Source: an uncultured Pelagibacteraceae bacterium | Lineage (GTDB): Bacteria > Pseudomonadota > Alphaproteobacteria > Pelagibacterales > AG-422-B15 | DNA: 64,000 nt | NCBI GenBank assembly: GCA_902544065.1 | Contig: CACCAS010000002.1 | Coordinates: 132,669-196,668 of the forward strand | Reading direction: 5' to 3' | Part shown: in pieces, positions 41,715 through 63,847 of the stretch | Position numbering within the stretch: the stretch's first letter is position 1 | How the letters are laid out: each line of letters opens with the position of its first letter | The notes under the pieces: generated by a model | What the model was told of the DNA's origin: nothing | What the model saw: only the letters and a program-made list of their open reading frames with translations | Databases searched by the model: none | Program-made: the position numbers and the translations under genes

Positions 41715-41763
41715 AAAAGAAATTAGTTTACTAGTATTACCATAATATCATATAACAATTTTA

Positions 41764-42969: not shown

Positions 42970-42973
42970 AATT

Positions 42974-44769: not shown

Positions 44770-44771
44770 TT

Positions 44772-46665: not shown

Positions 46666-48294
46666 ATGCCAAAAAATACTCATGATGTAATTGTTATAGG
46701 AGCCGGCCATAACGGCTTAACAGCAGCTAGTTATATGGCTAAAGCTGGTCTCGATGTTGTCGTTTTAGAAAAAAATGATTGGATAGGTGGTGCTGCGGTG
46801 AGCCGAGAGCTTTACCCTGGATGGAAATATTCAAATTGTTCCTATGTTTGTAGTTTATTAAGACCTGAGATCATGCGTGACTTGGAGCTTTATAAATATG
46901 GACTTCAAATTATTCCTTATGAAGGCAGTGCAACGATGATGAAAAATGGAGACTATTATACTCATTATCATGATCATGATATGACCATCAACTCTATTAG
47001 ACGTCATTCTCATAAAGATGCAGAAGCTTACGAAAGATATAGCCGTGATGTCCTCAGGCAATGTAAAATTATTAAGCCTCTTCTCAAAATGACGCCTCCT
47101 GACTTAACATCGTTCAAACCAAAAGATTTATTTGGCGCACTGGAGTTTGCAAAGCATTTTGCTGCAAAAGATGAATTAGGTGGGCTAGGAGAAAAAGAAA
47201 TTTATGACACAATTCGTTTTTATACTATGAGCATCAGAGATTACTTAGAAGAATATTTTGAAAGTGAAATTACCAAAGCTCACCTTGCTGGTAGCGCAAT
47301 TATTGGAACTGCTCTAGGCCCATGTTCACCAGGATCAGCTTATGTACTGTTGCACCACTACATGGGTGAGGTTGATGGATCAGTTGGTTCATGGGGATAT
47401 GCACGAGGTGGAATGGGATCTATTACTCAGGCAATGATGGGCTGTCTAAAAGATCATGGAGGAGAAGTAAAACCAAGTAGCGAAGTAATAAATGTTATTA
47501 CAAAAAATGGAAAAGCAATCGGTGTTGCTACACAAAATGGAGATGAATACTATGCTAAGAAAATAGTTTCCAACCTTGATGTCAAAAGAACTTTTTTAAA
47601 GATTACTGAAGAGAAGGACCTTCCAGATGATTTTGTGCGAAGTGTTAAAAATTTTAAGATAAGGGGTTCATCTGGTAAATTAAATATTGCATTAGATGGC
47701 TTGCCAGACTTTCCTTGTATTCCTGAAGGTGATCCAGGTGGTGGCGGAGACATGCACTTCACAGAAACCATAGAAGAGATGGAAGGAGCTTACGATGATT
47801 GGAAAAGGGGAGAATGGTCACGTAATCCATATGTTGATATGTGCATTCCATCCAAAAGTGACCCTACAATGGCTGAGCCAGGTAAACATTATATGTCTGT
47901 ATTTATTCAGTACGTACCATTTAACCTTGCAAATGGTGGTTGGAATGAAGAGAGAAAGCAAGAATTTGGAAGACACATAGTTGATTGTATTGCTGAGTTT
48001 TCGCCTAACTTTAAAGACCTAATTAATCATTATGAGGTACGAACACCACTAGAATTAGAAAACGAGGTTGGTTTGACAGAGGGTAATATTTTTCAAGGAG
48101 AGTTGACCATGGACCAATTAATGTTCAATAGGCCAGTTCCTGGATATGCGCAGTATCGGACTCCATTAAAAAATATGTATATATGTAGCTCTTCAACACA
48201 TCCAGGTGGAGGTGTAATGGGTGCACCAGGAGCTAACGCAGCTCGTGAAGTTCTATTAGACATGAACGTTCCACAAAAAGGAAATTATTATTAA
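46666..48294 (+). CDS. Phytoene-dehydrogenase-like FAD oxidoreductase (COG1233/PYROXD2-like), subunit 1
   Basis: IGAGHNGL, GGAAVS, GSAYVLLHH, GGMG, GNIFQGE, THPGGGVMGAPG.NAA. Confidence 0.85.
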   Translation: MPKNTHDVIVIGAGHNGLTAASYMAKAGLDVVVLEKNDWIGGAAVSRELYPGWKYSNCSYVCSLLRPEIMRDLELYKYGLQIIPYEGSATMMKNGDYYTHYHDHDMTINSIRRHSHKDAEAYERYSRDVLRQCKIIKPLLKMTPPDLTSFKPKDLFGALEFAKHFAAKDELGGLGEKEIYDTIRFYTMSIRDYLEEYFESEITKAHLAGSAIIGTALGPCSPGSAYVLLHHYMGEVDGSVGSWGYARGGMGSITQAMMGCLKDHGGEVKPSSEVINVITKNGKAIGVATQNGDEYYAKKIVSNLDVKRTFLKITEEKDLPDDFVRSVKNFKIRGSSGKLNIALDGLPDFPCIPEGDPGGGGDMHFTETIEEMEGAYDDWKRGEWSRNPYVDMCIPSKSDPTMAEPGKHYMSVFIQYVPFNLANGGWNEERKQEFGRHIVDCIAEFSPNFKDLINHYEVRTPLELENEVGLTEGNIFQGELTMDQLMFNRPVPGYAQYRTPLKNMYICSSSTHPGGGVMGAPGANAAREVLLDMNVPQKGNYY

Positions 48295-49811
48295 TGTCTG
48301 GCAATTCGAGTTTTGATGCCATCATAATTGGTGGAGGTCATAATGGATTGGTATGCGCAAACGTCCTCGCTAGAAAAAATAAAAGAGTATTAATCTGTGA
48401 AGCCCGAAAAGAATGTGGTGGCATGGTCAATAATGATATTACCAACTATGTTCCTCCAGTAACATCTGCTGTTTCAAGCTCGATTGGTGGAATGCAAATA
48501 AACTACATACCAAAGACTTCAATCGCTTTATCTGAAACTGGACAGCACATTCGACTAGTAGGCAATCAACACATTGATCATAAATCTATCTCAAGATTTT
48601 CTTCCCATGATGCTGACCGGTTTAATGATTTTCATGAAAAAATGTCAAAATTCTCAAAAACTTTAGGTTCTTTCATGATGGCATCACCTCCGCGAATAAT
48701 GAACAATAGTTTTTCTGACTATTTTAAACTCTTTAAGCTTGGATTAAATGTCAGGTTATTGGGAAAGAAAAATTTTAATGAGTTTGCTAGAATGATTGGC
48801 CTAAATATAGCTGATGAACTTGAAGACAATTTTGAAAATACACTACTTCAAGGATTGATTGCGCATGACTCAGTAATAGGGTCTAATTTAGGCCCGCGTT
48901 CACCAGGCTCTCTCATAAACTTATTGTATAGAATGGCTATTCATAACAATTCTTTATTTGGCGGTATATTTCAAATAGACGGTGGCAATGATCAATTCAC
49001 TAAACATTTAATTGAAAAATGTAAAAGTAATAATGTAGAAATAAAAACTTCAGCTTCTGTTAAAAATTGTATTATTGAAAATGACTGCGCTGTAGGCGTT
49101 GAGCTAAACAATGGTGAAAAAATGTATGCTAAGAAAATTATTTCAAATGCTGATCCACGTTCAACATACTTTTCACTGCTCGGTTCTCAAAACCTTGATA
49201 CTGACGTAAAGAGGAAAATAAAACATCATCGCTCCAAAGGAAGAGTTGCCAAACTTATTTTAGAGTTAGATAAGCTCCCTAGTTTTAACAATTGTGATGA
49301 CATTGATTTAGACAGCAGAATGGTTATTGCACCATCTATTGATTACATTGAAGAAACATTTAACCCTAGTAAGTTTGATAAGCTCTCATTAGAGCCAACA
49401 CTTGAGATATGTGTCAAAAAAGACTCTGATCAAGATCCAAAGTTAGATATTCAAGTGCAATATGCACCATATAAAACTCATCAAGGGTGGGAAAATATAA
49501 AAGAAAGTTACGTTGAGTCTATTATCAAAATAATTAGCAAATATGCTCCTAATATTAATGAATGCATTGAGCGTAAGAAATTACTAACTCCTGACGATAT
49601 TGAATCAGAATATAATGTATCAGGAGGGCACTGGCATCATGGTGAGATCCAAATTGATCAGCTTTTTATGATGCGCCCAATTCCAGGAGCCTCACAGTAT
49701 AAAACACATTTGGATGGTCTTTTTATGTGCGGTGCAGGAACACACCCAGGTGGCGGTTTAATTGGCATTTCAGGCAAAAACGCAGCTAAAGCAGTTTTGG
49801 ATGATTTTTAA
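48294..49811 (+). CDS. Phytoene-dehydrogenase-like FAD oxidoreductase, subunit 2
   Basis: IGGGHNGL, GP.SPGS, GGHWHHGE, GAGTHPGGG..G..G.NAA; start overlaps previous stop. Confidence 0.83.
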   Translation: MSGNSSFDAIIIGGGHNGLVCANVLARKNKRVLICEARKECGGMVNNDITNYVPPVTSAVSSSIGGMQINYIPKTSIALSETGQHIRLVGNQHIDHKSISRFSSHDADRFNDFHEKMSKFSKTLGSFMMASPPRIMNNSFSDYFKLFKLGLNVRLLGKKNFNEFARMIGLNIADELEDNFENTLLQGLIAHDSVIGSNLGPRSPGSLINLLYRMAIHNNSLFGGIFQIDGGNDQFTKHLIEKCKSNNVEIKTSASVKNCIIENDCAVGVELNNGEKMYAKKIISNADPRSTYFSLLGSQNLDTDVKRKIKHHRSKGRVAKLILELDKLPSFNNCDDIDLDSRMVIAPSIDYIEETFNPSKFDKLSLEPTLEICVKKDSDQDPKLDIQVQYAPYKTHQGWENIKESYVESIIKIISKYAPNINECIERKKLLTPDDIESEYNVSGGHWHHGEIQIDQLFMMRPIPGASQYKTHLDGLFMCGAGTHPGGGLIGISGKNAAKAVLDDF

Positions 49812-51011
49812 ATGACACAAGATCTTAGATATTCAGCCCTAAAGAAAACACCTTTTCATTCAAGAACCAGTTTAGCTTCGCGAACGAACAAATATTATAA
49901 CTGGAATGGATATACTGTGCCTACAGAATATTCAACTACTGAGCTTGAATATACAGCTGCAAGAAATGGAACATCAGTTATGGATTTAACCCCTATGGGC
50001 AAATATGAAATTACGGGAGGTCATGCGCATCAATTTGTTGATTACTTAGTTACTAGAGATTTATCCGAAATGAAGGACAATACAGTAGCTTATATCATCT
50101 GGTGTAATGAAGATGGAAAGGTGATTGACGATGGTACTATTTTCAAATTTTCTTCAACAAAATTTATGCTTTGCTGTGCTGTTAAAATATATAACTGGCT
50201 TAATGATTCAGCTTATGGTTTTGATGTTACAATTAGCGATGTGACAGATACAATTGCTGCATTAGCAATTCAAGGGCCAACATCCTGCTCAACTTTAAAA
50301 ACATTTGGAGCAACAGATCTTGAAACATTAAAACCTTTTGAAATGAGAGAATATAAGATTGATGGTTTCGATATTTTAATATCACGTACAGGATTTACAG
50401 GTGATTTGGGTTATGAATTGTGGACTGACCCAAAAAATGCAGAACTGACGTGGGATAATATTGAAATTGCTGGCAAGGAATTAAAGTTGAGACCTTTCGG
50501 AATGAATGCTCTCGAGATGACAAGAATTGAAGCTGGGTTTATTCAAACCAATACAGACTTTATGGCTGCTGAAGATTCATTGAGACCAACCAGAATGAGA
50601 TCACCTTATGAAATTGGAATGGGATGGCTTGTACACTTAAATAAAAACTCATATTTTGTTGGGAAGAAAGCTCTTAAAAAAGAAAAAGAAGAAAGCACTA
50701 CTGAGAGATGCTTAGTAGGCCTTGATATAGATGGAGATAAGCCAGCGCATGGTTCTGTGATCTATAATAGCAAAAAAGAAGACATTGGCATTGTAACTGC
50801 AGCTCTATGGTCTCCGATTATGAAAAAAAATATTGCACTGGCTTCACTTAAGAGACCTTATGGAATACAAATAAAAGAAAATATATTTGCAGAAATTTAT
50901 CACCCTGAAGAACTTGAGTACCGTAAGATATGGGCAAGATGCAAGGTAGTTAAAAGGCAATTTTTTAACCCTGAAAGAAGAAATAAAGTTCCTGCAGATC
51001 TATATGAATAG
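49812..51011 (+). CDS. GcvT-family aminomethyltransferase (folate-binding)
   Basis: TPFH, G.VIDDG, LAIQGP, ISRTGFTGDLGYEL, RIEAG. Confidence 0.88.
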   Translation: MTQDLRYSALKKTPFHSRTSLASRTNKYYNWNGYTVPTEYSTTELEYTAARNGTSVMDLTPMGKYEITGGHAHQFVDYLVTRDLSEMKDNTVAYIIWCNEDGKVIDDGTIFKFSSTKFMLCCAVKIYNWLNDSAYGFDVTISDVTDTIAALAIQGPTSCSTLKTFGATDLETLKPFEMREYKIDGFDILISRTGFTGDLGYELWTDPKNAELTWDNIEIAGKELKLRPFGMNALEMTRIEAGFIQTNTDFMAAEDSLRPTRMRSPYEIGMGWLVHLNKNSYFVGKKALKKEKEESTTERCLVGLDIDGDKPAHGSVIYNSKKEDIGIVTAALWSPIMKKNIALASLKRPYGIQIKENIFAEIYHPEELEYRKIWARCKVVKRQFFNPERRNKVPADLYE

Positions 51012-51043
51012 CTAAAAAATAACTATTTTACAGTAATTCAATT

Positions 51044-51073
51044 ATTGAACAGCTGTTCAATTTAAGCTATAAT
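51044..51073 (+). promoter_or_regulatory. Perfect 18-bp palindromic operator overlapping a sigma70 promoter
   Basis: ATTGAACAGCTGTTCAAT (51044-51061); TTGAAC-N17-TATAAT, with ATG 5 nt after the -10 box. Confidence 0.78.
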
Positions 51074-51078
51074 GATTC

Positions 51079-52482
51079 ATGCCTAAATCCACATCACAAT
51101 CAGCCAAAAACGATTTAAAGAATACTCTAGACGATAGAATTCTTCACCCATGGCAATACTTAGAATACAGAGGTGAAGATGATCGAACATTTATTGATAA
51201 GTCTGAGGGAATTTACCTTTATGACAAAACAGGAAAAAAACTAATTGATGGACCTGGAGGCATGTGGAATGTCAATGTTGGTCATAGTGTTAAAGAAATT
51301 GCGGATGCAGTTTATAATCAAATTACTAAAATGCCTTATGCAAGTCCGTTTACTGAATCAACAGAAATAGCTCACGACTATGCATCAAGACTTGTTCAAT
51401 ACGCACCTGGTGATTTAAAGAGGATTTTTTTTACCTCTGGGGGATCGTCTGCTGTGGACTCAGCATTACGATTTGTAATGTTCTATAATAATATTCTAGG
51501 CCGAAAAGAAAAAAAACAAATCATATCAAGAAACGATGCTTACCATGGCAGTACATTTTTAGGAGCTTCTTGTTCAGGCAAGGAAAGAGATAAAAATAAT
51601 TTTGATTTTGCAAGTAATATTGTTCATCATATTTCATCTCCTAATCCTTTTCGTAAACCTGATGATCTTACTGACGAAGAATTCTGTGATCTAAAAGTTC
51701 AAGAATTAGAAAACAAAATAATTGAAATTGGCGCTGACAAGGTAGCTGCTTTCATTGCTGAACCTATCTTAGCTTCAGGTGGCGTGATTGTCCCACCAAA
51801 AGGTTATCATAAGAAGACACATGAAATTTGTAAAAAACATGATGTGTTGTATATTTCTGACGAAATCGTCACTGGCTTTGGAAGACTTGGTCACATTTTT
51901 GCTTCAGAAAATCATTTTGATTTTACACCAGATATTATTCTTTTGGCTAAGGGGATTACATCTGGATATGTGCCTTGTGGAGCAGTTGTTATATCAGAGC
52001 GATTGATGTCCAAATTAGATAATAAAGAGAAAGTAATTTTTTCAAACGGTTTTACAGATTCAGGGCATCCTGTTAGTATGGCCGCCGCAACTGCAACTTT
52101 AGACTACATTGAAAAAACAAACTTACTTGATCACGTAAAAGATGTTGGCCCTTATTTTCAAGCAAAATTGAGAGAGCTTACTGATTTGCCAATTGTTGGT
52201 GAAGTTAGAGGTGAAGGTCTAATGGCTGCAGTAGAATGTGTAGGCAATAAAGATAAAAAAGATCCACTGAATTTGTCCTATGAGATTGGCTCTAGGATTA
52301 ATGAACATTGCCAGCAACTTGGTTTAATTGTACGACCATTATTTAGTACATGCGTCATGTCACCGTCATTAATTATCACGAAGGAACAAATTGATGACCT
52401 TGTTTCTATTTTGCGTAAAGGCATAGAGTTAGCAACTGATGATATCAAAAAAGAAGGTCTCTGGTCAGCAACTTCAAATTAA
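51079..52482 (+). CDS. Class III PLP aminotransferase
   Basis: LHPW, DGPGGMW, YHGST, AEPILASGG, DEIVTGFGR, LAKG, SGHP. Confidence 0.88.
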   Translation: MPKSTSQSAKNDLKNTLDDRILHPWQYLEYRGEDDRTFIDKSEGIYLYDKTGKKLIDGPGGMWNVNVGHSVKEIADAVYNQITKMPYASPFTESTEIAHDYASRLVQYAPGDLKRIFFTSGGSSAVDSALRFVMFYNNILGRKEKKQIISRNDAYHGSTFLGASCSGKERDKNNFDFASNIVHHISSPNPFRKPDDLTDEEFCDLKVQELENKIIEIGADKVAAFIAEPILASGGVIVPPKGYHKKTHEICKKHDVLYISDEIVTGFGRLGHIFASENHFDFTPDIILLAKGITSGYVPCGAVVISERLMSKLDNKEKVIFSNGFTDSGHPVSMAAATATLDYIEKTNLLDHVKDVGPYFQAKLRELTDLPIVGEVRGEGLMAAVECVGNKDKKDPLNLSYEIGSRINEHCQQLGLIVRPLFSTCVMSPSLIITKEQIDDLVSILRKGIELATDDIKKEGLWSATSN

Positions 52483-53720
52483 TGACCTTTTTTAATCAAC
52501 TTAAAGAAAGATATGAAGAAGGAAAGACTCTTCCGCAAGAGTTTTATACAGACGAAGAAATATTCTCTGATGAAATGATAAAAATTTATTTCAAACAGTG
52601 GCTGATGGTTGATCATGTTAGCCGTATTCCAAACCCTGGAGATTATTTTTTATTTAACGCAGAAAAAGAGTCAATAATTCTAATACGTGGAAGGGATAGT
52701 CAAGTTAGAGCTTTTTACAATGTTTGTTCTCATCGTGGTTCAAGAATATGTTTGGAAGAAGAAGGAACAAAAAAACTGTTAGTTTGTCCATATCACGCTT
52801 GGAGTTTCTCTGCAGAGGGAGAATTAAAGTCAGCACGCTATATGCCAGATGATTTTAAAATGGAAGATTGGGGTTTAAAGCCTTGTCATATGAATATCTA
52901 TCAAGGCTTGATATTCATAAATCTTTCAATGGATGAACCAATGGATTTCAATGAGTTTATTGCTCCATTGACTGAGCTTGTAAATTTTCATAATCCTGAA
53001 AAGGCAAAGATTGCTGCTAGACGAAAATATCCTACGAAAGCTAATTTCAAACTTGTCCTAGAAAATTTTCAAGAATGCTATCACTGTGGTCCAGCACATC
53101 CAGAGCTATGCTCAGTACATGAAAAAGACTGGGTATTCACAATGGGTGCCGGTCTTGGAACAGCCCCGGAAAAAGAAACACTAGAATATTTAAAAAAGAT
53201 TCAACCATGGATTGAGGATTGCAAAACAAAAGGAATCCCCACAAAAACATATTTAGAAACTGAAGAAGGATTAAGTAAGGGATTAAATCGATACGTAGAC
53301 CGTACACCCATTGGAAATGGAAATTTATCACAAACTAAAGATGGCAAACCAGCCTCTAAACTAATGGGTCAGTTTAAAGAATTTGATGGTGGCTTATCCC
53401 AAGTTAGTTTTAATCCTTTTAGCTGTTGTTACTTTACAAATGATTTTGGAGTTATGTTTATATTTAAACCATTATCAATTTTGCAGTCTGAAGTCGAATT
53501 GATTTGGTTAGTCAATGAGGAAGCTGAAGAAGGCAAAGATTTTAATGAAGAAAACCTTACTCACATATGGGACGTAACCACTGCACATGACACAACTATT
53601 ATTGAAAATAATCAAAATGGTTTGTTGTCTCATTCATTTAGTCCTGGAGTACTCTCACAGAACGAGTCTGCCGTCACGTATTTTTATGATTGGTATTTTA
53701 CCAATATGAGACTACCATGA
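52482..53720 (+). CDS. Rieske non-heme iron oxygenase alpha subunit (GbcA/CntA/Stc2-like)
   Basis: Rieske ligands NVCSHRG and CPYHAW; catalytic ENFQECYHC...H; C-terminal D....NQ.G. Confidence 0.9.
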   Translation: MTFFNQLKERYEEGKTLPQEFYTDEEIFSDEMIKIYFKQWLMVDHVSRIPNPGDYFLFNAEKESIILIRGRDSQVRAFYNVCSHRGSRICLEEEGTKKLLVCPYHAWSFSAEGELKSARYMPDDFKMEDWGLKPCHMNIYQGLIFINLSMDEPMDFNEFIAPLTELVNFHNPEKAKIAARRKYPTKANFKLVLENFQECYHCGPAHPELCSVHEKDWVFTMGAGLGTAPEKETLEYLKKIQPWIEDCKTKGIPTKTYLETEEGLSKGLNRYVDRTPIGNGNLSQTKDGKPASKLMGQFKEFDGGLSQVSFNPFSCCYFTNDFGVMFIFKPLSILQSEVELIWLVNEEAEEGKDFNEENLTHIWDVTTAHDTTIIENNQNGLLSHSFSPGVLSQNESAVTYFYDWYFTNMRLP

Positions 53721-53737
53721 TGTAGGACAAATTTCTT

Positions 53738-55093
53738 ATGAAGCAGCTGTACAACAAGGATATTTACGACGTTAATAAACCAGTAGAAAGCTATTGGGAA
53801 GAGGTCAGCAGCATTGACCAAAATAAGTATCCAGAATTAGTTGGAGATCAATCATGTGATGTATGTGTTATTGGAGGTGGCTTTACAGGCATTAGTACGG
53901 CTTATCATATTGCAAAAAATTATGGTGGAGATGTAAGAGTGTTAGAATCTGGGCACTATGGTTTTGCAAGTAGTGCAAGGAATGCAGGTTTTTGCTGTTT
54001 ACCAGCTACAAAGTTATCAACCACACAATTAATAAAAAAGTTTGGTATGGAAGAGACAAAGAAATTTTTTTCATCTCAAATTGAAGGTGTTGATCTTCTT
54101 GCAGCTATCATATCAGAAAATAATATTGATTGTGAAAAAGTAGGTGATGGCAACCTTGATGTAGCTCACCATCCAGGCAGCAGTGAAGAATTAAAAGAAT
54201 GGGGAAATGAACTGAAAGAGTATTTTGGTATTAATACAAAATGGATACCTAAAGAAGAATTTGATGAAGTTGGACATCAATCAACTGAACAATTTGGAGC
54301 AGTTTTTACAGAGGCTGGATTTGCAATGAATCCTATGGCGTTTATGCGAGGCTTTGCATCAGCAACTGTAGATGCAGGTGCAAAATTACATAGTTTTTCA
54401 AGAGTAAAAAAATGGGAGAGAAATGGATCACATAAGCTAATAACAGATAGTGGATCAATTACTGCAAATAAAGTTGTTGTAGCGACTAATGGCTACACAG
54501 ATGAGTCACTTCATCCAAGTTTTGCAAATCGAATGATGCCAGTCCTATCAAATATTATTGTTACCAGAGAAATGAGTGATGATGAATTTAAGTTACAAAA
54601 CTACAAAACTTTAAATCCTATATGTAATTCTAGAGAAATTTTATATTATTATAGAAGGATGCCTTCTAACAGAATGTTGTTTGGCACAAGAGGTGATACT
54701 TATGGTGATGATGCAAGTGCACTAAAAATGAGAGAATTTATGACTCAAAAATTTAGAGGCGTTTTTCCTAATTGGAATAATATTGATATTGATCACTACT
54801 GGAGAGGTACAGTTGTAATGACTAGAGACTTTGTACCTGCATTTGGCGCATTGGATGACGACAAGTCAGTGTTATTTTCATATGGCTATCAAGCAAATGG
54901 TAACAATACTACAGTTTATTGTGGAAAGAAGTTGGCTGAGATGATCTATGAATCCAATAGCGGAGAAACTAATATTTCAAAAGTCTATCAAGGACTCTCT
55001 CCAAAAATACCACTAGGATTTTTAAGATTATGGTATTTAAGACTATATCTATGGTATTCAAATTTTACGGATAAAAGTAAAAAAGAAATATAA
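53738..55093 (+). CDS. FAD-dependent oxidoreductase (PuuB/DadA-like)
   Basis: SYW, IGGGFTG, AS.RNAGF, ATNGY. Confidence 0.85.
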   Translation: MKQLYNKDIYDVNKPVESYWEEVSSIDQNKYPELVGDQSCDVCVIGGGFTGISTAYHIAKNYGGDVRVLESGHYGFASSARNAGFCCLPATKLSTTQLIKKFGMEETKKFFSSQIEGVDLLAAIISENNIDCEKVGDGNLDVAHHPGSSEELKEWGNELKEYFGINTKWIPKEEFDEVGHQSTEQFGAVFTEAGFAMNPMAFMRGFASATVDAGAKLHSFSRVKKWERNGSHKLITDSGSITANKVVVATNGYTDESLHPSFANRMMPVLSNIIVTREMSDDEFKLQNYKTLNPICNSREILYYYRRMPSNRMLFGTRGDTYGDDASALKMREFMTQKFRGVFPNWNNIDIDHYWRGTVVMTRDFVPAFGALDDDKSVLFSYGYQANGNNTTVYCGKKLAEMIYESNSGETNISKVYQGLSPKIPLGFLRLWYLRLYLWYSNFTDKSKKEI

Positions 55094-55094
55094 A

Positions 55095-55123
55095 TTGCAT
55101 CTATTATTTATATAAATTAAAAT
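55095..55123 (+). promoter_or_regulatory. sigma70 promoter of the Pot-type permease genes (probably leaderless)
   Basis: TTGCAT-N17-TAAAAT, ATG 6 nt downstream. Confidence 0.5.
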
Positions 55124-55129
55124 TTTCTA

Positions 55130-56014
55130 ATGTTACAAGTTTGGAAGTCTTTTTATGCAAGGAGTGATCCTGCAAAAGCTTATTCACTTCTTTCTCCTGC
55201 ATTGATCCTGGTTACTTTAGCTATGCTTATACCGTTAGGTCTAATGTTAAGTTTTAGTTTTTTTACTCAAACCAGTTTTACAGAGATTGACTACTCTTTT
55301 ACAATCACAAGGTACATTGATTTTTTTCAAAGTAATTTGCTTGTTTCACTACTTATAAAATCTGTGAAGATTTCGTTTATTGTAACTTTCGTAACTCTTC
55401 TTACCGCATATCCTGTCTGTTATTACATAGCTTTTTATGTAAAAAAAAATAAAATGTTATGGCTTGTTTTACTCACTTTACCTTTCTGGACATCCTATCT
55501 TTTGAGAGTTTTTTCTTGGAAAATTATACTTGGAACTAAAGGAGTCATTAATTCCTCTTTAATTAATGCGGGACTGCTTAGTGAACCTCTCACTTTTCTA
55601 ATGTACTCTGAGACCGCAGTTATCATAACGCTTACCCATGCATGGGCAGCATTTGCTTTACTGCCTTTGTATGTTTCATTGGATAAAATAGATTTTTCTC
55701 TAATTGAAGCTGCCAGAGACTTAGGATTGTCTAGGTTAGAAACTTTTTGGAAAATTACTCTTCCATTATCCCTTCCTGGAATAATTGGCGCCATACTAAT
55801 TATCTTTATTCCAACTGTTGGAGATTATGTAACCCCTGCTCTACTTGGGGGAACTGATGGAAGAATGCTATCAAATATGATCCAAGCTTACTTTGGAAAA
55901 GTAAACAACCTTCCGCTTGGTGCCGCCTCTGCGACCATCATGCTTATTACTGTAGCAATAGTGACAATGATTGTTTCATATACAACAAAAAAACTTACTC
56001 AAAGGATTTCATAA
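55130..56014 (+). CDS. potB: PotB-like ABC permease
   Basis: LPFWTSYLLR..SW, EAARDLG, LPLSLPG, GDYVTP.LLGG. Confidence 0.85.
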   Translation: MLQVWKSFYARSDPAKAYSLLSPALILVTLAMLIPLGLMLSFSFFTQTSFTEIDYSFTITRYIDFFQSNLLVSLLIKSVKISFIVTFVTLLTAYPVCYYIAFYVKKNKMLWLVLLTLPFWTSYLLRVFSWKIILGTKGVINSSLINAGLLSEPLTFLMYSETAVIITLTHAWAAFALLPLYVSLDKIDFSLIEAARDLGLSRLETFWKITLPLSLPGIIGAILIIFIPTVGDYVTPALLGGTDGRMLSNMIQAYFGKVNNLPLGAASATIMLITVAIVTMIVSYTTKKLTQRIS

Positions 56015-56830
56015 GTGGAACAAAAGAACAATACATTGTTAATCTATACATTATTGTATTTTGCATTTTTATATATTCCTGTTTTATTCTTGCCCATTTT
56101 CAGTTTTAACGACGCAAATTACATGTCATTTCCACTTTCAGGATTTACAACAGAGCATTATGAAGAAATGTGGGAAAAAACAAACTTACATAAAGCTCTT
56201 TGGGCTAGTATCAAAGTAGGTATAGTTGCAAGTGTCGTCAGTACAACAATTGCACTTTTTGCAGCCAAAGCATTCGCACGTTATAAATTCAGAGGGCAAA
56301 ATATTTCTTATGGGGCCATTATGATTCCTTTTTTAATCCCTGAAATTATTTTAGCGGTTGCAATACTTGTTATTTGGTTGAGCCTCGGTTTTAAATTGGG
56401 ACTTGTGCCGGTAACTTTAGGACATATTCTTTTTTGTACTCCATTTGCAATGCTTATTTTAATCGCTCGTATAGAAGGATTTGATTTCTCACTTGAGGAA
56501 GCCTCAAGAGACCTTGGGGAAAACGCTTGGGGGACATTTTACCGAGTATCTCTTCCATTATACTTACCAGGCATAATAGCTTCACTTTTATTGAGTTTTA
56601 TAATTTCATTTGATGAATTTGTTCTGGCATTCTTCTTAACTGGAAGCGATGCTACATTGCCAATGTACATGTGGGCTCAAATGAGATTTATTCAAAAACT
56701 ACCTCATGTATTGGCTTTAGGAGCAGTTATAATTGTATTTACTACTTTTATAGTTTTGTTAGCATTCTGGTTGAGAAACCTTGGTCAAGGAAAAGACAAA
56801 GCTGAATTTGGAATAAAAATACATGAATGA
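56015..56830 (+). CDS. potC: PotC-like ABC permease
   Basis: FLYIP...FSFN, LEEASRDLG, SFDEF, TLP; GTG start. Confidence 0.85.
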   Translation: MEQKNNTLLIYTLLYFAFLYIPVLFLPIFSFNDANYMSFPLSGFTTEHYEEMWEKTNLHKALWASIKVGIVASVVSTTIALFAAKAFARYKFRGQNISYGAIMIPFLIPEIILAVAILVIWLSLGFKLGLVPVTLGHILFCTPFAMLILIARIEGFDFSLEEASRDLGENAWGTFYRVSLPLYLPGIIASLLLSFIISFDEFVLAFFLTGSDATLPMYMWAQMRFIQKLPHVLALGAVIIVFTTFIVLLAFWLRNLGQGKDKAEFGIKIHE

Positions 56831-57905
56831 TTCATTTATACAGATAAACGAGATTTCCAAGCACTTTGGACAAGTAAAGGCAGTAGATAATGTATCCTTT
56901 GAAATCAAAGAGGGAGAGTTTTTCTCTCTACTTGGCCCGTCTGGTTGTGGTAAAACAACCTTATTGAGATTATTAGCCGGCTTTGAGTATCCAACTAGTG
57001 GAAATCTATTACTTGATGGCAGTGATATTACCGCATTACCTCCTGATAAAAGACCTACAAATATGGTTTTTCAGAACTACGCAATTTTTCCACACATAAA
57101 CGTTGAGAAAAATGTTCAGTTTGGTCTTAGAAAACTTGGCTTAACAAACGATGAAATTATCAAAAGAGTCAAGGATGTTTTGTCGTTGGTTAAATTAGAA
57201 GGATATGAAGAACGCTATAGTAGCCAACTATCTGGAGGTCAAAGACAAAGAGTGGCATTAGCAAGGGCTTTAGTAAGACAACCCAAAGTATTATTGTTGG
57301 ATGAACCACTTGGTGCATTAGATAAAAAGTTACGTGACGAAATGCAACTCGAACTGAGAACTCTTCAAAAGGAGATTGGAATAACTTTTGTGTTTGTAAC
57401 GCATGACCAGCAAGAGGCTATTAGTATGTCTGACCGAGTTGCAGTAATGAGTGAAGGGAAAATTCAGCAGATGTCATCTCCAAACGAATTATATAAAAAT
57501 CCTCAAAATATATTTGTTAGTGACTTTATTGGTGAAACTAATTTTTTAAAAGCTAAGACAGATTCTAAAGATGGAGAATATATTATTGTTAACATTGAAG
57601 ATCTTGGTTCATTTAAAATAAAAAATAATCTCAATATAAGTGAAAATGCCTCAGATGTTATTTGCAGTGTTCGTCCAGAGACAATGATGATTGACAAAGA
57701 AAAATCAGACTGGGATATTTGCTTAGAAGGTAAAATCAAGCAAACATCATATCTAGGTGAAATGACAAAATTTTACGTTGAAACTAAAGAAATTGAAAAA
57801 ATTATAACCGTATCATCACAATATTTTGATAATCAGTCTTTTCAAGATGGTAAATGCTTTATCAGCATAAATTTAAACGATATTTCCTTACTCAATAAAA
57901 AATAG
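56823..57905 (+). CDS. potA: PotA-like ABC ATPase
   Basis: GPSGCGKTT, FQNYAIFPH, LSGGQRQR, LDEPLGALD, C-terminal TOBE-like region. Confidence 0.9.
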   Translation: MNDSFIQINEISKHFGQVKAVDNVSFEIKEGEFFSLLGPSGCGKTTLLRLLAGFEYPTSGNLLLDGSDITALPPDKRPTNMVFQNYAIFPHINVEKNVQFGLRKLGLTNDEIIKRVKDVLSLVKLEGYEERYSSQLSGGQRQRVALARALVRQPKVLLLDEPLGALDKKLRDEMQLELRTLQKEIGITFVFVTHDQQEAISMSDRVAVMSEGKIQQMSSPNELYKNPQNIFVSDFIGETNFLKAKTDSKDGEYIIVNIEDLGSFKIKNNLNISENASDVICSVRPETMMIDKEKSDWDICLEGKIKQTSYLGEMTKFYVETKEIEKIITVSSQYFDNQSFQDGKCFISINLNDISLLNKK

Positions 57906-57934
57906 CCTGTTCTCTTTTGAGAACAGGCTATTTT
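57899..57934. terminator. Bidirectional intrinsic terminator
   Basis: Perfect 16-bp inverted repeat AAAATAGCCTGTTCTC-TTTT-GAGAACAGGCTATTTT between convergent genes. Confidence 0.9.
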
Positions 57935-57956
57935 AAATTAGTCTATTAGCAGTGAA

Positions 57957-59036
57957 TTAACCGCCAGCCACCATTTCAGCCCACTGAGCTTCCATGTAGT
58001 CGGTAACCTCGTCAGTTGGCATCACTGAGAACATTCCATTATTTAAATGTTCTATAGGATTTGAAGCAACACCACGCTCAGCTAATTCATCAGCTGTAAG
58101 AGTGCTAAAGCCAGCTTTATTACTGTGTCCATAACCCCACTCACTTAATAAGTAAGCAGACGTTTCAGCACTAGTAGCACCGTTAATCATTGCGTATGCT
58201 TTATCAAGATCTGCACCTTTAACAATTGCAAGACCACACGCCCAAGTCATTGTGCCATTAGCAGGTTGCATCATTTTTGCTCCTGCACTCCATGCTATTT
58301 CGTTCCATCCTAGTGCTACGTCAATTTCTTCGTTTCCTAGGGCCTCTATCATTGAAGATGTATCTCCGAAGAATGCACGAATTTGACCATTATCTCTCAT
58401 TTCACGAAACTTATCGATACCTTGGTCAATAGCAGCTTTTGTTAACTGATCTTGCTCTCTGATGTCAATTCCAAGATGGTGCATCATTAAAAACAGTGAA
58501 TCTGCAGCTGAGTCTAAGATACCAACTTTACCTTTTACTCTTGGGTCTTCCATTAGCGCAAAGCTCTCGTTAGAGGCATCCATCCAATCAACTCTGTCTG
58601 CCATGTAAAACAATGTAGTATCTCCCCAGTCCACTGGTGCGAAATAATGCTTGCCATCAACAATGCCACTTGGCAGGTCTCTAACCTCAGGGAACATCTC
58701 ATCCCAGTTTTCAATCCTTGATGGATCAAGTGGTTCTAATACGCCTGCTCTCACCCATCTTTTTATTTCACCTTGACATGGCCATGCTAAGTCAACTTCA
58801 AAACCTGCTTTTAGTTTTTGCAATCCTTCTTCAGCATCACCAAAGATTGAGTATTCAGGGGAACCATGCTCTTCAGCGTATGTTCCAAATAGGCCATCAT
58901 CATCATAGCCACCCCACAAGAAGACTGATCCAGGTCCTGGCTTAGACTGTGCAACTTCTTCTTCTTGTTGAGAACATGCAGCAATAAGAGCTATTAAAGC
59001 TGCTCCCAATAGAACTGTAAATATTGATTTTTTCAT
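57957..59036 (-). CDS. PotD/PotF-like ABC substrate-binding protein, predicted lipoprotein
   Basis: Lipobox IAAC, WGGY, KLKAG, P.DWG, W.CGLAI, AYAMIN; AAGGA SD. Confidence 0.82.
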   Translation of the reverse strand: MKKSIFTVLLGAALIALIAACSQQEEEVAQSKPGPGSVFLWGGYDDDGLFGTYAEEHGSPEYSIFGDAEEGLQKLKAGFEVDLAWPCQGEIKRWVRAGVLEPLDPSRIENWDEMFPEVRDLPSGIVDGKHYFAPVDWGDTTLFYMADRVDWMDASNESFALMEDPRVKGKVGILDSAADSLFLMMHHLGIDIREQDQLTKAAIDQGIDKFREMRDNGQIRAFFGDTSSMIEALGNEEIDVALGWNEIAWSAGAKMMQPANGTMTWACGLAIVKGADLDKAYAMINGATSAETSAYLLSEWGYGHSNKAGFSTLTADELAERGVASNPIEHLNNGMFSVMPTDEVTDYMEAQWAEMVAGG

Positions 59037-59102: not shown

Positions 59103-60599
59103 TTAAAGGTGAATCAAGGGGCGATTTTTGTTTGAATTAAGCCATGGATCTAACATTTCGTAGTTGTACCCACCCTGGAATACCAATTCATCGCAGTAAG
59201 ATCGCGAAATAATTTGGATTCCTGTTGGAATATTGTTAGAGCTTAATCCTGAAGGGACTGTTAGGACTGGTAATTTCCCCAACATATTAAATGGATGTGA
59301 CATAACCCAAGAAAAATCATTACACTTCTGCTCTTTATTATTGATAACGATATTTTCATTAACAATATCAATATCAGCCTTAATTGAAGGTAAAGAGTTT
59401 GTAGGACATATAAATAAATCGTAACTGTCTAATATTGGTCCAATTTCTGAATACATTCGGCCTGTGATTTCTGAGCTTTCAATAACATCGTATCCAACAT
59501 AAGCCCCTATTTTATCATGATAGTACTTCTCATTATTTTGTATCGCTCTGATATGTAATTCAGGGACTTCAGCAAACATTTTTGCATAATCAGTTAATAG
59601 TCTTTTTTCATCGTTTGAAAATTTTGCAATGAGGCCATAAAATGAATTAGCGTAATGACTAAAGCAAACCGAATTTACTTCATCTCGACTCCAATTTAAT
59701 TTTACTTCTGTAATTGATGCGCCAAGAGCCTCAAATTTTTTTAAGGCCTCTAATGTATTTTTTTCAACTTCTTCATCAACCTCAAAAAATCCAAGATCAA
59801 GTGAATAAGCAATTTTCCAGTTCTTAATATTCTCAAACTTAATAGGAATAATTTTTTTAGGTCTTAGTGAGGCAATATCATTTTTATTTGGACCACTCAT
59901 AACATTTTGCATAAGGGCACAATCACTAACAGTTCTCGCAAGGGGACCAACAACACAATACGGATCATGATTAAAAGGATAACCCATTGGATTTCTTCCA
60001 TATGGAGGTTTGTAACCAACGACTCCGCAGGCCCCAGCAGGGATACGAATTGATCCACCTATATCACTACCAGTTGCAAGTGATGCACAACCCGATGCTA
60101 GTGCGGCAGCACTCCCTCCACTTGAACCTCCCGGTGTCATATCTAAGTTCCAGGGATTTCTTGTGACGCCATTCACTTTGGAATGGCAGAATGATGTCAG
60201 TGAAAACTCTGGGTTAGTTGTGCGCGCATGAATTATTGCACCAGAGTTTACAAGGGACTCTACATCTACGTCAGTTCTTTCTGCTATTACGTCTTTATAG
60301 ATTAAGCTTCCATTCTTATTAGGTTGTCCCTTTATATTAACTTCATCTTTAATTGCTAAAGGTAAACCTTCCAAAGGCAAAGTAGATTTATCTTCTGTAT
60401 ATTTTAATTCTGAATGTTTTGCTTCTTTCAATGCTTCTTCGAAGCGGAAAAAATTAAAAGCATTAATTTTTGGGTTTACATTTTCAATTCTTTTTATTGT
60501 CTCATTTAATAGCTCAACTGGAGACAAAGATTTATTTTTAAATTTTTCTAGGGCTTCAGAAGCTGATAAATAACAAATATCGAGGTCTAAACTGTTCAT
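59103..60599 (-). CDS. Amidase-signature family amidase
   Basis: GLPLAIKD, TRNPW, GGSSGGS, GSDIGGSIRIPA. Confidence 0.9.
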   Translation of the reverse strand: MNSLDLDICYLSASEALEKFKNKSLSPVELLNETIKRIENVNPKINAFNFFRFEEALKEAKHSELKYTEDKSTLPLEGLPLAIKDEVNIKGQPNKNGSLIYKDVIAERTDVDVESLVNSGAIIHARTTNPEFSLTSFCHSKVNGVTRNPWNLDMTPGGSSGGSAAALASGCASLATGSDIGGSIRIPAGACGVVGYKPPYGRNPMGYPFNHDPYCVVGPLARTVSDCALMQNVMSGPNKNDIASLRPKKIIPIKFENIKNWKIAYSLDLGFFEVDEEVEKNTLEALKKFEALGASITEVKLNWSRDEVNSVCFSHYANSFYGLIAKFSNDEKRLLTDYAKMFAEVPELHIRAIQNNEKYYHDKIGAYVGYDVIESSEITGRMYSEIGPILDSYDLFICPTNSLPSIKADIDIVNENIVINNKEQKCNDFSWVMSHPFNMLGKLPVLTVPSGLSSNNIPTGIQIISRSYCDELVFQGGYNYEMLDPWLNSNKNRPLIHL

Positions 60600-60651
60600 A
60601 AGATTATTTTATTTTAATTTATTAATTAATAAAATATATTGAATTCACACC

Positions 60652-61746
60652 ATGATTGATCAAAACATTAGAGACATTATTAAAAATCAAGACCCTAATA
60701 CAGGAATGGATCAGCTTTTTTTCACCAACAAAGCATTGTTTGATCTAAGTTATGAGGCTGTTTTCAAGAAACAGTGGGTATTTCTTACTCATCTATCTTG
60801 TTTTAATGAAAACAATACATTCATTTATCAAATTAACGGAGGGTTTGTTGAAATAAAAAAGTCTAAAAATAATAATTTAGCTATCTCATCATCTTTACCT
60901 GATTTCAAATGTCATTTAAAAGTGTATGAAAGCTTAATTTTTGTCAACTTTTCTGATGTACCATATTCATTTGAAGAATTCATAAAACCACTAGAACCAT
61001 ATATTAAAATTCATGGCCTTAATGATGGTAAGATCGCATTTCAAAAAGACTTTATATTTAATGCTTCTCATCTTGCAACCATTCACAACTTCAAAGAATG
61101 CGCGCATTGTTGGGGAGGTGAGTTTACTCACAAAGATTATTTAAGTGTTCATGGGGAGGCGTATTGTAATTCTTATGGAGCTGGAGTTGGCTCAGGAATT
61201 GAATCTCCTGAATTCAATCAACGAATAAAAGATTGGACATTTGAAAGTCAAAATAAAGGTTTGTTTGTTGGCGAGTACAGTGAAGATACCAATAAATATT
61301 TTAGAATTGCAGAGCGCACTCCTTTACCTGAAGGCATTATGTCTGAGACAATGGATGGTAGCTATTCATGCTCTTCACTGATGGGGGACTTTAAAACCAT
61401 AGGACCGGATCATGGTTATACCGCTATTGGTTTTAGCCCATTCAATAGCTTTGTTGCCAATAATGAATTTGTAATTCTTTTTTTATTTACTCCTGTTAGT
61501 CAAAATAAAACAATCGTTACTCAATATTGGGTTACTCACAAAGATGCTGAAGTTGACATTGATAAAATGATTTTTCTTTGGGACCAAACATCAACAGAAG
61601 ATTCTCAATTGTGTGAAATGAATCAAAAGGGCATTGAAAGTAGAGCTTATCAGCCTGGAAAGTATGGTGAACTAGAGACAAGCTTGGTTCAGTATCAAAA
61701 GTTCTATCTAAGTCATTTACAAAATCACGTTAATGGACTGACTTAA
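60652..61746 (+). CDS. Rieske-oxygenase catalytic (SRPBCC) domain protein lacking the [2Fe-2S] motif
   Basis: Aligns by eye along its length with 52482..53720; keeps NFKECAHC...H and ED...CE.NQ.G but has no CxH/CxxH. Confidence 0.75.
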   Translation: MIDQNIRDIIKNQDPNTGMDQLFFTNKALFDLSYEAVFKKQWVFLTHLSCFNENNTFIYQINGGFVEIKKSKNNNLAISSSLPDFKCHLKVYESLIFVNFSDVPYSFEEFIKPLEPYIKIHGLNDGKIAFQKDFIFNASHLATIHNFKECAHCWGGEFTHKDYLSVHGEAYCNSYGAGVGSGIESPEFNQRIKDWTFESQNKGLFVGEYSEDTNKYFRIAERTPLPEGIMSETMDGSYSCSSLMGDFKTIGPDHGYTAIGFSPFNSFVANNEFVILFLFTPVSQNKTIVTQYWVTHKDAEVDIDKMIFLWDQTSTEDSQLCEMNQKGIESRAYQPGKYGELETSLVQYQKFYLSHLQNHVNGLT

Positions 61747-61760
61747 GTCAGGGATATAAA

Positions 61761-63131
61761 ATGGAAGTTGCTACACAAGCTGAATTTGATGAAATATTAA
61801 GTCAGTACAATAATATTCAATATGTCGATGCAATCTTCACAGATTTATGTGGTTATGTAAGAGGAAAACGTTTCCCGGTCCTTGAAGCAAATAAAATATT
61901 CTCAGATGGAGTCCTACTGCCTTTTAGTGCTTTCTATTTGGACGTACTAGGGGGAGTTACAAATACTTTAAATTTAGGTTGGACAGACGGTGATCCTGAC
62001 GGTGTTCTGGTACCTGTTAAAGGCAGTATTAAACCAGTTCCGTGGGATGAACGTTTCTTACAAGTTCTTATCACAATGAGAAAAGAGCAGGAAAATTGGG
62101 GAGTGATACAAGACCCATCAGAGGTTGACCCTAGAAATATTCTTAAAAAAGTTATGAAGAATTTTAAGAACACCGGATTGAAACCTGTTGTTGCTTTTGA
62201 ATTAGAATTTTATCTCTTGGACAAAAATAGGGATAAGTTTGGAAAACCAATACCCGCTGAAGGGGCTAATAAAACACATGTATACGGTATGCCAGATCTT
62301 GATCTCTTCGGTAAGTTATTTGACGACATTAATAAGAATTGCGAAATGCAAAATATACCAGCGACTACGGCTTCAAGTGAATTTGCCGCGGGACAGTATG
62401 AGATTAATCTAAAGCACACAGGAGATCTTCTAAAAGCCGCAGACGATGCAGCTTTATTAAGACGAATTATTAAAGAGACAAGTGAACGACATGGCTATGA
62501 AGCAACATTTATGGCAAAACCTTTTTTAGATCAAACGGGCAATGGAATGCACCTTCATCTCTCTGTTTATGACGAGAATGAAAAAAATATATTTACAACT
62601 CCCAATCGTTATGGAAATAAAAAATTAAAAAGTGCTATAGCTGGTTTTCAGTCAATGTTTTATGATAGTTTCCCAATTTTTATTCCAAATCGCAATGGTT
62701 ACAGAAGAATAGAAACAAGAAATTTTGTTCCTGTTAATACAAGCTGGTCGTGGAATCGAAGAGATGTTTCATTAAGAATACCAGCTGGATCAAATGACGC
62801 AAAAAGAATTGAACATCGTGTGGCTTCATCAGATGCCAATCCTTACTTAGTCCTAGCATGCTTGTTAGCAGGGCTGCATAACGGTTTAACTAATGAACTA
62901 ACTCCATCAAATCAAGTTGACTTTGATAATAATGAAGGAGCGGATAAAGAAGCCGATATTGATATGCCAAAAAATATGGATCAAGCGTTGCGTCGGTTTC
63001 AATCTTCTAAACTGTTAAAAAAATATCTTGGAAAAGAATATCTTGATCTCTACACTGCTGCAAAACAAGGAGAAATTGATCATGTCGAGTCAAGTTTTGT
63101 TCCTCGAGAGGAATATGATCTTTATTTATAA
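61761..63131 (+). CDS. Glutamine-synthetase-family gamma-glutamyl-amine ligase (PuuA-like)
   Basis: RGKR, FELEFYL, E...GQYEINL.H, TFMAKP, GNGMHLH, RIEHRV..DANPYL. Confidence 0.88.
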   Translation: MEVATQAEFDEILSQYNNIQYVDAIFTDLCGYVRGKRFPVLEANKIFSDGVLLPFSAFYLDVLGGVTNTLNLGWTDGDPDGVLVPVKGSIKPVPWDERFLQVLITMRKEQENWGVIQDPSEVDPRNILKKVMKNFKNTGLKPVVAFELEFYLLDKNRDKFGKPIPAEGANKTHVYGMPDLDLFGKLFDDINKNCEMQNIPATTASSEFAAGQYEINLKHTGDLLKAADDAALLRRIIKETSERHGYEATFMAKPFLDQTGNGMHLHLSVYDENEKNIFTTPNRYGNKKLKSAIAGFQSMFYDSFPIFIPNRNGYRRIETRNFVPVNTSWSWNRRDVSLRIPAGSNDAKRIEHRVASSDANPYLVLACLLAGLHNGLTNELTPSNQVDFDNNEGADKEADIDMPKNMDQALRRFQSSKLLKKYLGKEYLDLYTAAKQGEIDHVESSFVPREEYDLYL

Positions 63132-63133
63132 TC

Positions 63134-63847
63134 ATGACTGAATTACTTTTTAACAATGACGCTTACCTCACTCAGTCAGAAGCAGTTGTTACAAATGTTG
63201 ATCAAAACTCTATCCAATTAAATCGAACTATTTTCTATGCTGAGTCAGGTGGTCAGCCAGGCGATAAAGGAGAGATCATCTTAGGTGATCAAATTTATAA
63301 AGTTACTGACACTCAGAAAGGTAATTCTCCAAATGAAATTATTCATTTAGTCGATGGTGATATTGATCAGAGCATTGTTGGTAAAGAATGTGAGATCAAA
63401 ATTGATTGGGAATTGAGACAGAGTCATATGAGAATGCATACCTCATGTCATATTCTGTGTAGTTTGATTGATGCTTTAATTACAGGTGCTTCAGTTAGTG
63501 CACAAAAAAGTAGAGTTGATTTTGATGTTGACCCGAGTTTACTTGACAAAGAGATAATGAACCAACAGATTGAAGAAATTATTAAAACTAATTTTCCTGT
63601 ATTCACAAAACAAATTTCTGGAGATGAATTTAGAGATAATCCTCATTTAGCAAAAGGTGCTGCTGTTAGCCCTCCCATAATTGATAACAAAGTACAAATT
63701 GTTCAAATTGGTGAAGATAAAATTTTAGATATACAGGCGTGTGGAGGCACTCATGTGAAATCAACGGGTGAGATTGAAGGATTAGAGATTGGAAAAATTG
63801 AAAATAAAGGTAAAAGAAACCGAAGAGTGAACATAAGGTTTAAATAA
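63134..63847 (+). CDS. alaX: AlaX alanyl-tRNA editing protein
   Basis: T.FYAESGGQPGD.G, MRMHTSCH (HxxxH), ACGGTHV (CxxxH). Confidence 0.9.
   Translation: MTELLFNNDAYLTQSEAVVTNVDQNSIQLNRTIFYAESGGQPGDKGEIILGDQIYKVTDTQKGNSPNEIIHLVDGDIDQSIVGKECEIKIDWELRQSHMRMHTSCHILCSLIDALITGASVSAQKSRVDFDVDPSLLDKEIMNQQIEEIIKTNFPVFTKQISGDEFRDNPHLAKGAAVSPPIIDNKVQIVQIGEDKILDIQACGGTHVKSTGEIEGLEIGKIENKGKRNRRVNIRFK

Follow-up and report, generated by a model that had tools for sequence, protein, structure and literature searches.

The stretch analysed here, which we call the window, is 64,000 nucleotides long (contig C2, positions 132669-196668) and comes from a SAR11 genome of 1.26 Mb (33% G+C, 18 contigs, 93.8% complete). 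It contains a gene, here called ROshort, for the alpha subunit of a Rieske-type oxygenase that lacks the ligands of the Rieske cluster, and 8 kb upstream of it a complete paralog, here called ROfull (Table 1). The two proteins are 27% identical (BLASTP, E 3e-46), and their matches flank a long gap at the cluster region, with FKKQWVF..TH aligned to FKQWLM..DH before the gap and CHLKVYESLIFVN aligned to CHMNIYQGLIFIN after it. In multiple alignments a gap of 49 columns removes both CxH and CxxH from ROshort. An earlier note on this DNA, made from the letters alone, had claimed this resemblance on both sides of the cluster region and an in-frame loss of about 50 amino acids (aa) with CSH and CPYH near 60877-60910. 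Both observations hold; the interval translates to LAISSSLPDFKC, and the junction falls within it. The note had also called the two genes paralogs. They are, but the paralogy is old, and the Rieske-bearing proteins nearest to ROshort belong to another clade (P0024-P0028 and P0033; 410-411 aa, 36-37% identity by BLASTP and 40-41% in the multiple alignment) rather than to that of ROfull.

The domain content and the predicted structure agree with the alignments. In Pfam, ROshort matches PF00848 only (47.6 bits against a cut-off of 24.9) and leaves the Rieske domain PF00355, which carries CxH...CxxH, unmatched, whereas ROfull matches both. The best NCBIfam model for ROshort is GbcA (NF058607), with a score of 139.1 bits that lies below the cut-off of 670; ROfull scores 302.8 bits against the same model, likewise under the cut-off. 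The AlphaFold 2 (AF2) model of ROshort has a predicted local distance difference test score (pLDDT) of 90.4 and a predicted template modelling score (pTM) of 0.90. The best solved folds are 3n0q and the stachydrine demethylase Stc2 (3vca, 4qur; TMq 0.83-0.85), followed by the carnitine oxygenase CntA at about 0.6, and a profile search of PDB sequences returned the same best matches with E-values of 1e-67 to 1e-63. The scaffold is modelled as strands between residues 43 and 99 with pLDDT 86-96, and the weakest block is the loop that holds the histidine ligands (His loop, residues 151-160, pLDDT 69). ROshort is thereby confirmed as an Stc2/GbcA-type Rieske-oxygenase alpha subunit that has lost about 49 cluster-carrying residues and kept the remainder of its N-terminal scaffold together with the catalytic domain. 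In the model the strands of the former Rieske domain persist in residues 1-87, and the cluster-binding excursion alone is lost.

Table 1. Coordinates of the features discussed. Positions are those of the window unless a locus is named.
Feature	Position	Strand	Description	Evidence
ROshort	60652..61746	+	364 aa, Stc2/GbcA-type oxygenase alpha subunit without Rieske cluster ligands	ORF (open reading frame), Pfam, AF2, dN/dS
Residues 1-87 of ROshort	60652..60912	+	kept beta-scaffold of the former Rieske domain, without cluster-binding loops	alignment with complete relatives; AF2 model
Deletion junction	60895..60906 (approx.)	+	residues 82-85; in-frame deletion of about 49 residues with CxH...CxxH	alignments, translation, RNA-library contigs
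SHLA	61066..61077	+	residues 139-142, in place of the family-wide NWKL	divergence table
ECAHCWGGEFTH	61096..61131	+	bridging Glu149, iron ligands His152 and His160, 3-residue insertion (Hx7H)	translation
Asp317	61600..61602	+	carboxylate of the 2-His-1-carboxylate triad; ED motif at 61597-61602	translation, alignments
ROfull	52482..53720	+	complete paralog, 412 aa, Rieske and catalytic domains; candidate electron-relay partner	PF00355 and PF00848
Glutamine-synthetase-like (GS-like) ligase	61761..63131	+		PF00120; syntenic in 10/10 loci
Amidase	59103..60599	-	divergent from ROshort	PF01425; 9/10 loci, absent in G006
AlaX-like (tRNA_SAD) protein	63134..63847	+	downstream of the GS-like gene	PF07973 and PF01411; 8/10 loci
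Remaining amine-catabolism cluster	49812..59036	.	GcvT-like protein, class-III aminotransferase, ROfull, DAO-family flavoprotein, PotBCA-type ABC transporter, binding protein	Pfam, NCBIfam, gene order
Third oxygenase	L004:1396-2538 (contig C1)	+	380 aa, complete Rieske and ECLHCPNLH motifs	tree, motifs
Second cluster-less oxygenase	L044:4487-5566	-	359 aa, genome G006	same syntenic position as ROshort
P0058	L063:10001-11098	+	365-aa cluster-less Stc2-like protein, canonical iron motifs; Planctomycetales metagenome-assembled genome (MAG)	

The short form is widespread and under strong constraint. A search of 5.8 billion proteins gave 32 matches, 23 of them to the short form (14 full-length and nine fragments). 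The full-length orthologs have 364-366 aa and 60-98% identity, and all match PF00848 only, none PF00355; in metagenomes, the short-form clusters hold hundreds of member sequences. In a survey of 301 genomes of the order, with matches counted at 67% identity or more, the short form was found in 45 of the 60 genomes of family f1 (the present genome counted) and in none of the 241 genomes of family f2; the copies have no internal stops. The ratio of nonsynonymous to synonymous substitution rates (dN/dS) of ROshort, which the earlier note had proposed to compare across orthologs, has a median of 0.056 (range 0.016-0.142; 155 usable out of 435 pairs, from 30 orthologous loci) and reveals strong purifying selection. 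By region it is 0.029 in the catalytic part, 0.120 in the N-terminal scaffold and about 0 in the His loop. ROshort is about as constrained as its neighbours: across ten genomes the ratio is 0.066 for ROshort, 0.049 for ROfull, 0.085 for the GS-like gene and 0.129 for the amidase. RNA-library contigs from four marine studies cover ROshort; those of two studies cross the deletion junction without a gap (X1 record 4, 60724-61100, and X7 record 21, 60570-60928), and two contigs bridge ROshort and the GS-like gene (X4 record 14 and X1 record 7). Being contigs, they speak to presence in RNA libraries and not to level, strand or transcript, and the parts they leave uncovered are uninformative.

These results bear directly on the possibility that the gene is in decay, that its deletion is confined to a strain and under relaxed selection, or that the assembly created it, which the earlier note had named as the outcome that would overturn its reading. 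We find only hints in this direction, namely that the scaffold evolves at about four times the rate of the catalytic part and that 15 of the 60 f1 genomes have no short-form match. However, the scaffold ratio is still low, and in four of the matchless genomes (G104, G018, G032 and G112) the contig stops short of the position. The stop-free copies in 45 genomes, the low overall dN/dS, the independent contigs across the junction and the metagenome clusters make decay or artefact so extremely improbable that we treat it as excluded. As far as sequence analysis allows, it is certain that ROshort is a functional protein whose iron site is preserved and whose Rieske cluster is gone.

The roles of the bridging glutamate and of the facial triad are well established for Rieske oxygenases. 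In a divergence table of 42 short sequences, three sequences of a second short family (G006 type, described below) and 35 complete sequences, Glu149, His152, His160 and Asp317 are invariant throughout, and across both short families and the complete forms the same holds for the stretch positions E149, C150, H152, C153 and H160. Only 36 of the 364 positions are conserved in both the short and the complete families, and the four iron-site residues are among them. The region of ECAHCWGGEFTH aligns to RECYHCSS---NH of Stc2 (3vca), with Glu149 at the glutamate of RECYHC, and Asp317 aligns with the triad aspartate of Stc2. The distal motifs GAG.G, RTP and LMG.FK are all present in the alignment, as the earlier note had stated.

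The surroundings of the iron have been remodelled. The histidine ligands are spaced Hx7H in ROshort (Hx7-8H family-wide, with a GGEF-type insertion) as opposed to the canonical Hx4H, and relative to the complete forms the 364-aa family shows the second-shell replacements NWKL to SHLA, P161K, D272E and W351F. The Stc2/GbcA motifs NWKL...E-C-Y-H-C-x3-H-P-E are not found in ROshort, which reads SHLA...ECAHCWGGEFTHKD, and the alignment reveals three conserved cysteines specific to the 364-aa family (C172, C240 and C321). The claim that the iron motifs are intact is therefore correct for the ligands (ECAHC...H and ED), but the Hx7H spacing and SHLA in place of NWKL mean that the second shell is not. 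A long stem branch (0.9) leads to the 364-aa family in the trees, and the pattern seen in the sequences is one of functional change followed by strict conservation. Because the second shell is replaced, the histidine spacing altered and the His loop poorly modelled, the chemistry may have changed, and the state of the second shell suggests that the function of ROshort may have changed with it.

ROshort is not the only member of this branch without a cluster. Genome G006 encodes another short form where ROshort would be expected by synteny, flanked by the binding protein and the GS-like gene and with the same complete paralog at the locus. It retains NWKL and ECYHCGPAHPEYC, with the canonical ECYHCGPAH. 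In the tree this protein joins P0033, a complete form (99/96), also after removal of the deletion columns, and its gap boundaries differ from those of ROshort. A tree constrained to one deletion common to all SAR11 short forms was rejected by the approximately unbiased (AU) test (p 0.004), for a group that was defined after the first tree had been seen. The G006 type is a family of its own (P0182, P0183 and P0184; 359-362 aa, 67-100% identity, tens of member sequences), nested within hundreds of complete relatives of 410-417 aa. An exhaustive profile-free search of 1.84 billion representatives found further end-to-end matches of similar length without PF00355, namely P0058, P0086 and P0106. 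P0058 is sister to a complete protein (99/96); P0086 and P0106 have no firm placement in the tree and were left out of the count of losses. This gives at least three independent losses of the cluster, in the 364-aa type, in the G006 type and in P0058, the first two of them at one SAR11 locus. The neighbours of P0058 are a 446-aa methyltransferase and unidentified proteins, and elsewhere its genome encodes a further oxygenase as well as several small Rieske proteins that stand alone, in open frames of 112-131 aa. Among 201 genomes of the SAR11 order, no complete relatives of the P0033 type were found beyond ROfull and the short forms.

In Rieske oxygenases the electron passes from the cluster of one subunit to the iron of the adjacent subunit, and the loss of the cluster from ROshort directs attention to the other Rieske domains of the genome. 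There are only three: those of ROfull, of a distantly related 380-aa oxygenase on contig C1 and of a membrane-bound subunit of the bc1 complex. The 380-aa oxygenase is highly divergent from both ROfull and ROshort (branch length about 4); it adjoins a 235-aa ORF on the opposite strand. The third Rieske protein (169 aa) is read from its sequence as the bc1 subunit because it has an N-terminal anchor and is directly followed by cytochrome b. Apart from ROfull, the genome contains no cytoplasmic Rieske protein of this family that could act as donor; ROfull is the most likely candidate. The FNR-type reductase domain PF00175 has no match in the genome, an absence that at 93.8% completeness is not proof, and PF00111 has two matches only, in open frames of 153 and 841 aa. 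The genome nevertheless encodes two complete Rieske oxygenases, ROfull and the 380-aa protein, which raises the question of how any Rieske oxygenase of this SAR11 family is reduced.

Both centres of ROfull are invariant (C82, H84, C102 and H105 for the cluster; E198, H201, H206 and D370 for the iron). Several observations are consistent with ROfull as the partner. In 34 of the 45 genomes with a short form the two genes lie on the same contig, 7.7-8.6 kb apart; they are on different contigs in three genomes, and eight have no listed ROfull match, several of these at contig ends. Whereas the best of three controls stayed at an interface score (ipSAE) of 0.00, a two-chain model of ROshort and ROfull, a form of the complex prediction that the earlier note had proposed, reached 0.82 in three runs, a mark attained by 58 of 80 solved complexes and by two of 110 mismatched pairs. 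The pLDDT of the partner does not fall below 89, and agreement between the runs extends to 100% of the contacts. The model places ROfull residues 79-88 and 101-106, which are the CxH and CxxH loops, against ROshort residues 151-152, 154-158 and 320-341; the predicted contact is the canonical head-to-tail one, with the inserted His loop at its centre. However, alpha3 trimers of this family have been solved, and the pass for this reason shows likeness and not binding.

We propose that ROshort acts as an iron oxygenase and is supplied with electrons in trans, most likely from ROfull 8 kb away, a reading that we hold tentatively and rate somewhat short of an even chance. ROshort would belong to the Stc2/GbcA branch as a functional, neofunctionalised catalytic subunit that lacks [2Fe-2S]-binding loops of its own; it would bind Fe(II), activate O2 and oxidise (N-dealkylate or hydroxylate) an amine, possibly after the neighbouring GS-like ligase has gamma-glutamylated it. 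Its electrons would arrive in trans from the Rieske centre of ROfull, in a mixed head-to-tail trimer that sets the ROfull cluster beside the ROshort iron. The separate parts of this proposal differ in strength: ROshort probably still activates O2 with electrons received in trans, and ROfull in a mixed trimer is a plausible candidate for the supplier. A bolder form, which we regard as unlikely, is that cluster loss is a recurrent, selected state in this branch of oxygenases and that ROfull serves in mixed trimers as the built-in ferredoxin of a re-tuned cluster-less paralog. If true, cells in an iron-poor ocean would thereby spare both iron and genome, running two oxidations from one electron entry with no canonical reductase. 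The idea of the earlier note, a catalytic-only subunit served by the complete paralog, thus draws partial support from the invariant triad and Glu149, the linkage, the lack of another donor and the complex model; the remodelled second shell, the docking face and the solved trimers that may explain the pass limit this support. The sequential demethylation that the note had added to the idea draws none.

A number of points weigh against this proposal, and several of them would be expected if ROshort were instead a stand-alone, homo-oligomeric iron enzyme with no Rieske relay, its iron face open once the cluster loops had gone. In such an enzyme a small non-Rieske donor might reduce the iron, or the substrate itself might supply the electrons, as in an oxidase or dioxygenase that needs no external reductant. 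The 28 residues at the predicted interface are not more conserved than others (mean entropy 0.445, against 0.609 overall and 0.466 in the catalytic part; permutation p 0.10); invariant positions make up 8 of these 28 and 117 of the 336 elsewhere. Only 7 of the 28 match the consensus of the complete forms, as compared to 152 of the other 336, so that the docking face of ROshort, judged by its sequence, is constrained but remodelled and unlike that of the complete forms. The second-shell replacements, the altered histidine spacing and the low model confidence of the His loop also weigh against the proposal, and on the stand-alone reading the second shell and the His-loop insertion would have been remodelled on the long stem branch and then frozen. 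There is no oxygenase within 10 kb of P0058 at its Planctomycetales locus, and the PF00175 reductase was not found in the SAR11 genome even for the complete oxygenases, which implies that unusual electron routes must exist in any case. To these are added difficulties of the mixed trimer itself: by its geometry it would leave one iron site without a neighbouring cluster for each short subunit, any two proteins from a family whose alpha3 trimers are solved would be expected to pass the complex prediction, and ROshort and ROfull belong to separate transcription units. Nevertheless, the bridging Glu149 is invariant, and its known role is to link the iron to the Rieske histidine of the neighbour; no plant-type ferredoxin candidate was seen, PF00111 being confined to the two frames given above, which were not examined further; and the G006-type short family retains all canonical motifs of its electron-dependent relatives. 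We therefore consider a stand-alone enzyme possible but unlikely.

A role without redox chemistry appears less likely again. ROshort might be a metal-dependent hydrolase or lyase, an SRPBCC ligand-binding or chaperone protein, or a subunit that serves the ROfull trimer in a structural or regulatory way without catalysis. The NCBI pipeline names its members 'SRPBCC family protein' and nothing more, the family has lost NWKL, changed its histidine spacing and gained the conserved C172, C240 and C321, and the gene neighbours are an amidase and a ligase and not a reductase. However, the four iron-site residues are unchanged in all 45 short sequences of the two families and belong to the few positions held in common with the complete forms, and the His loop has a dN/dS of about 0.

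The earlier note had compared ROshort to the caffeine N-demethylase subunit NdmC, and in lacking the cluster the two are alike, although their architecture and partners differ. In the NdmCDE N7-demethylase of the Pseudomonas putida CBB5 caffeine pathway, NdmC is a non-heme-iron oxygenase subunit that has no Rieske cluster of its own and takes electrons from a Rieske centre of a different polypeptide, the domain having moved onto the reductase NdmD (PMC4408171). Unlike NdmC, with which we compare ROshort by description and not by sequence, ROshort has had about 49 residues of cluster loops excised from a domain whose scaffold is kept. It also belongs to the Stc2/GbcA branch, and its genome, unlike the NdmCDE system, holds no extra Rieske domain and no PF00175. 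Without a spare Rieske protein and an FNR-type reductase domain an NdmCDE-like arrangement does not apply, and no partner of that kind was found in the 93.8% complete genome. An NdmE-like glutathione S-transferase (GST) was not seen among the cluster genes scanned for domains, no search aimed at GST having been made. In full-text literature searches NdmC was the sole cluster-less oxygenase subunit described as such; the other phrase matches were unrelated papers on bc1, and one further match (PMC8383307) was irrelevant.

A second point of comparison is chlorophyllide a oxygenase (CAO) of the alga Micromonas, in which, as Kunugi et al. reportedly found in 2013, one chain holds the cluster and the other the iron site. 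The two-gene enzyme of Micromonas pusilla is described as 'found in two polypeptide chains' (PMC9615114). That enzyme belongs to a different branch and to a eukaryotic alga, and ROfull, unlike a cluster-only chain, retains both centres; the loss in the ROshort/ROfull pair is for this reason one-sided and not reciprocal. Among closer relatives, Stc2 (3vca, 4qup/4quq/4qur), 3n0q and GbcA share with ROshort the E-C-x-H-C iron motif and the stretch NQxG..S..Y.PG but, unlike ROshort, carry the CxH/CxxH cluster, the Hx4H spacing and NWKL. ROshort is set apart from both NdmC and the Micromonas enzyme by an internal excision that spares the scaffold, by the lack of a relocated Rieske domain, by a putative partner with both centres and by recurrent loss. 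ROshort, a conserved family member without its cluster loops in an abundant group of ocean bacteria, poses directly the question of how its iron is reduced. If mixed trimers form, they would represent a natural division of labour between paralogous alpha subunits, possibly an iron-saving adaptation.

The gene order around ROshort is the same in nine of ten fetched loci: an amine-oxidase-like flavoprotein, a GcvT-like aminomethyltransferase, a class-III aminotransferase, ROfull and a DAO-family flavoprotein are followed by a PotBCA-type ATP-binding cassette (ABC) transporter, a binding protein (minus strand), the amidase (minus strand), ROshort, the GS-like ligase and the AlaX-like protein. The exception is G006, which has no amidase; in that locus the GS-like gene is followed by a 261-aa ORF that resembles an enoyl-CoA hydratase by eye only. 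The gap between the ROshort stop and the start of the GS-like gene is 14 nt, and the two genes probably form an operon. The NCBIfam matches of the GS-like ligase (gamma-glutamylputrescine synthetase, GlnA) are all under the cut-off. A scan for promoters and terminators was uninformative because it returned 18 promoter-like sites, below the 24.4 expected, and zero terminators.

Taken as a whole, the region looks like one for gamma-glutamyl, polyamine-like amine catabolism, and the locus would then mark an uncharacterised, widely conserved amine-catabolic cluster of SAR11. A precedent comes from the aniline and 1-naphthylamine dioxygenases (AtdA1-A5, NpaA1-A5), in which the amine is glutamylated by a GS-like ligase before the gamma-glutamyl product is oxidised by a Rieske oxygenase; an amidotransferase-like amide hydrolase is also encoded (PMC11335346). 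The Atd and Npa oxygenases are aromatic dioxygenases with a complete set of two subunits and a reductase of their own, and their likeness to the ROshort locus is one of context only; we take the precedent, by analogy, as a lead on the class of substrate.

Upstream, two end-overlapping genes for flavoproteins of the amine-oxidase/NAD_binding_8 type (46666-49811, plus strand; 542 and 505 aa) head the operon of the GcvT-like gene, the aminotransferase and ROfull, and these flavoproteins might be part of the electron path. Further to the upstream side of the cluster, positions 40950-46585 encode a C26 peptidase of the gamma-glutamyl hydrolase type, an acyl-CoA dehydrogenase, another class-III aminotransferase, a GNAT protein, an MFS transporter and a BetI-type TetR regulator, a set of genes that fits a larger island for the catabolism of gamma-glutamyl amines. 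Within the GS-like gene, one RNA-library contig (X4 record 16) gains 1 nt after 62989 and lacks 1 nt at 62993; the two together may represent a population variant whose frame change is compensated, or an error in the contig.

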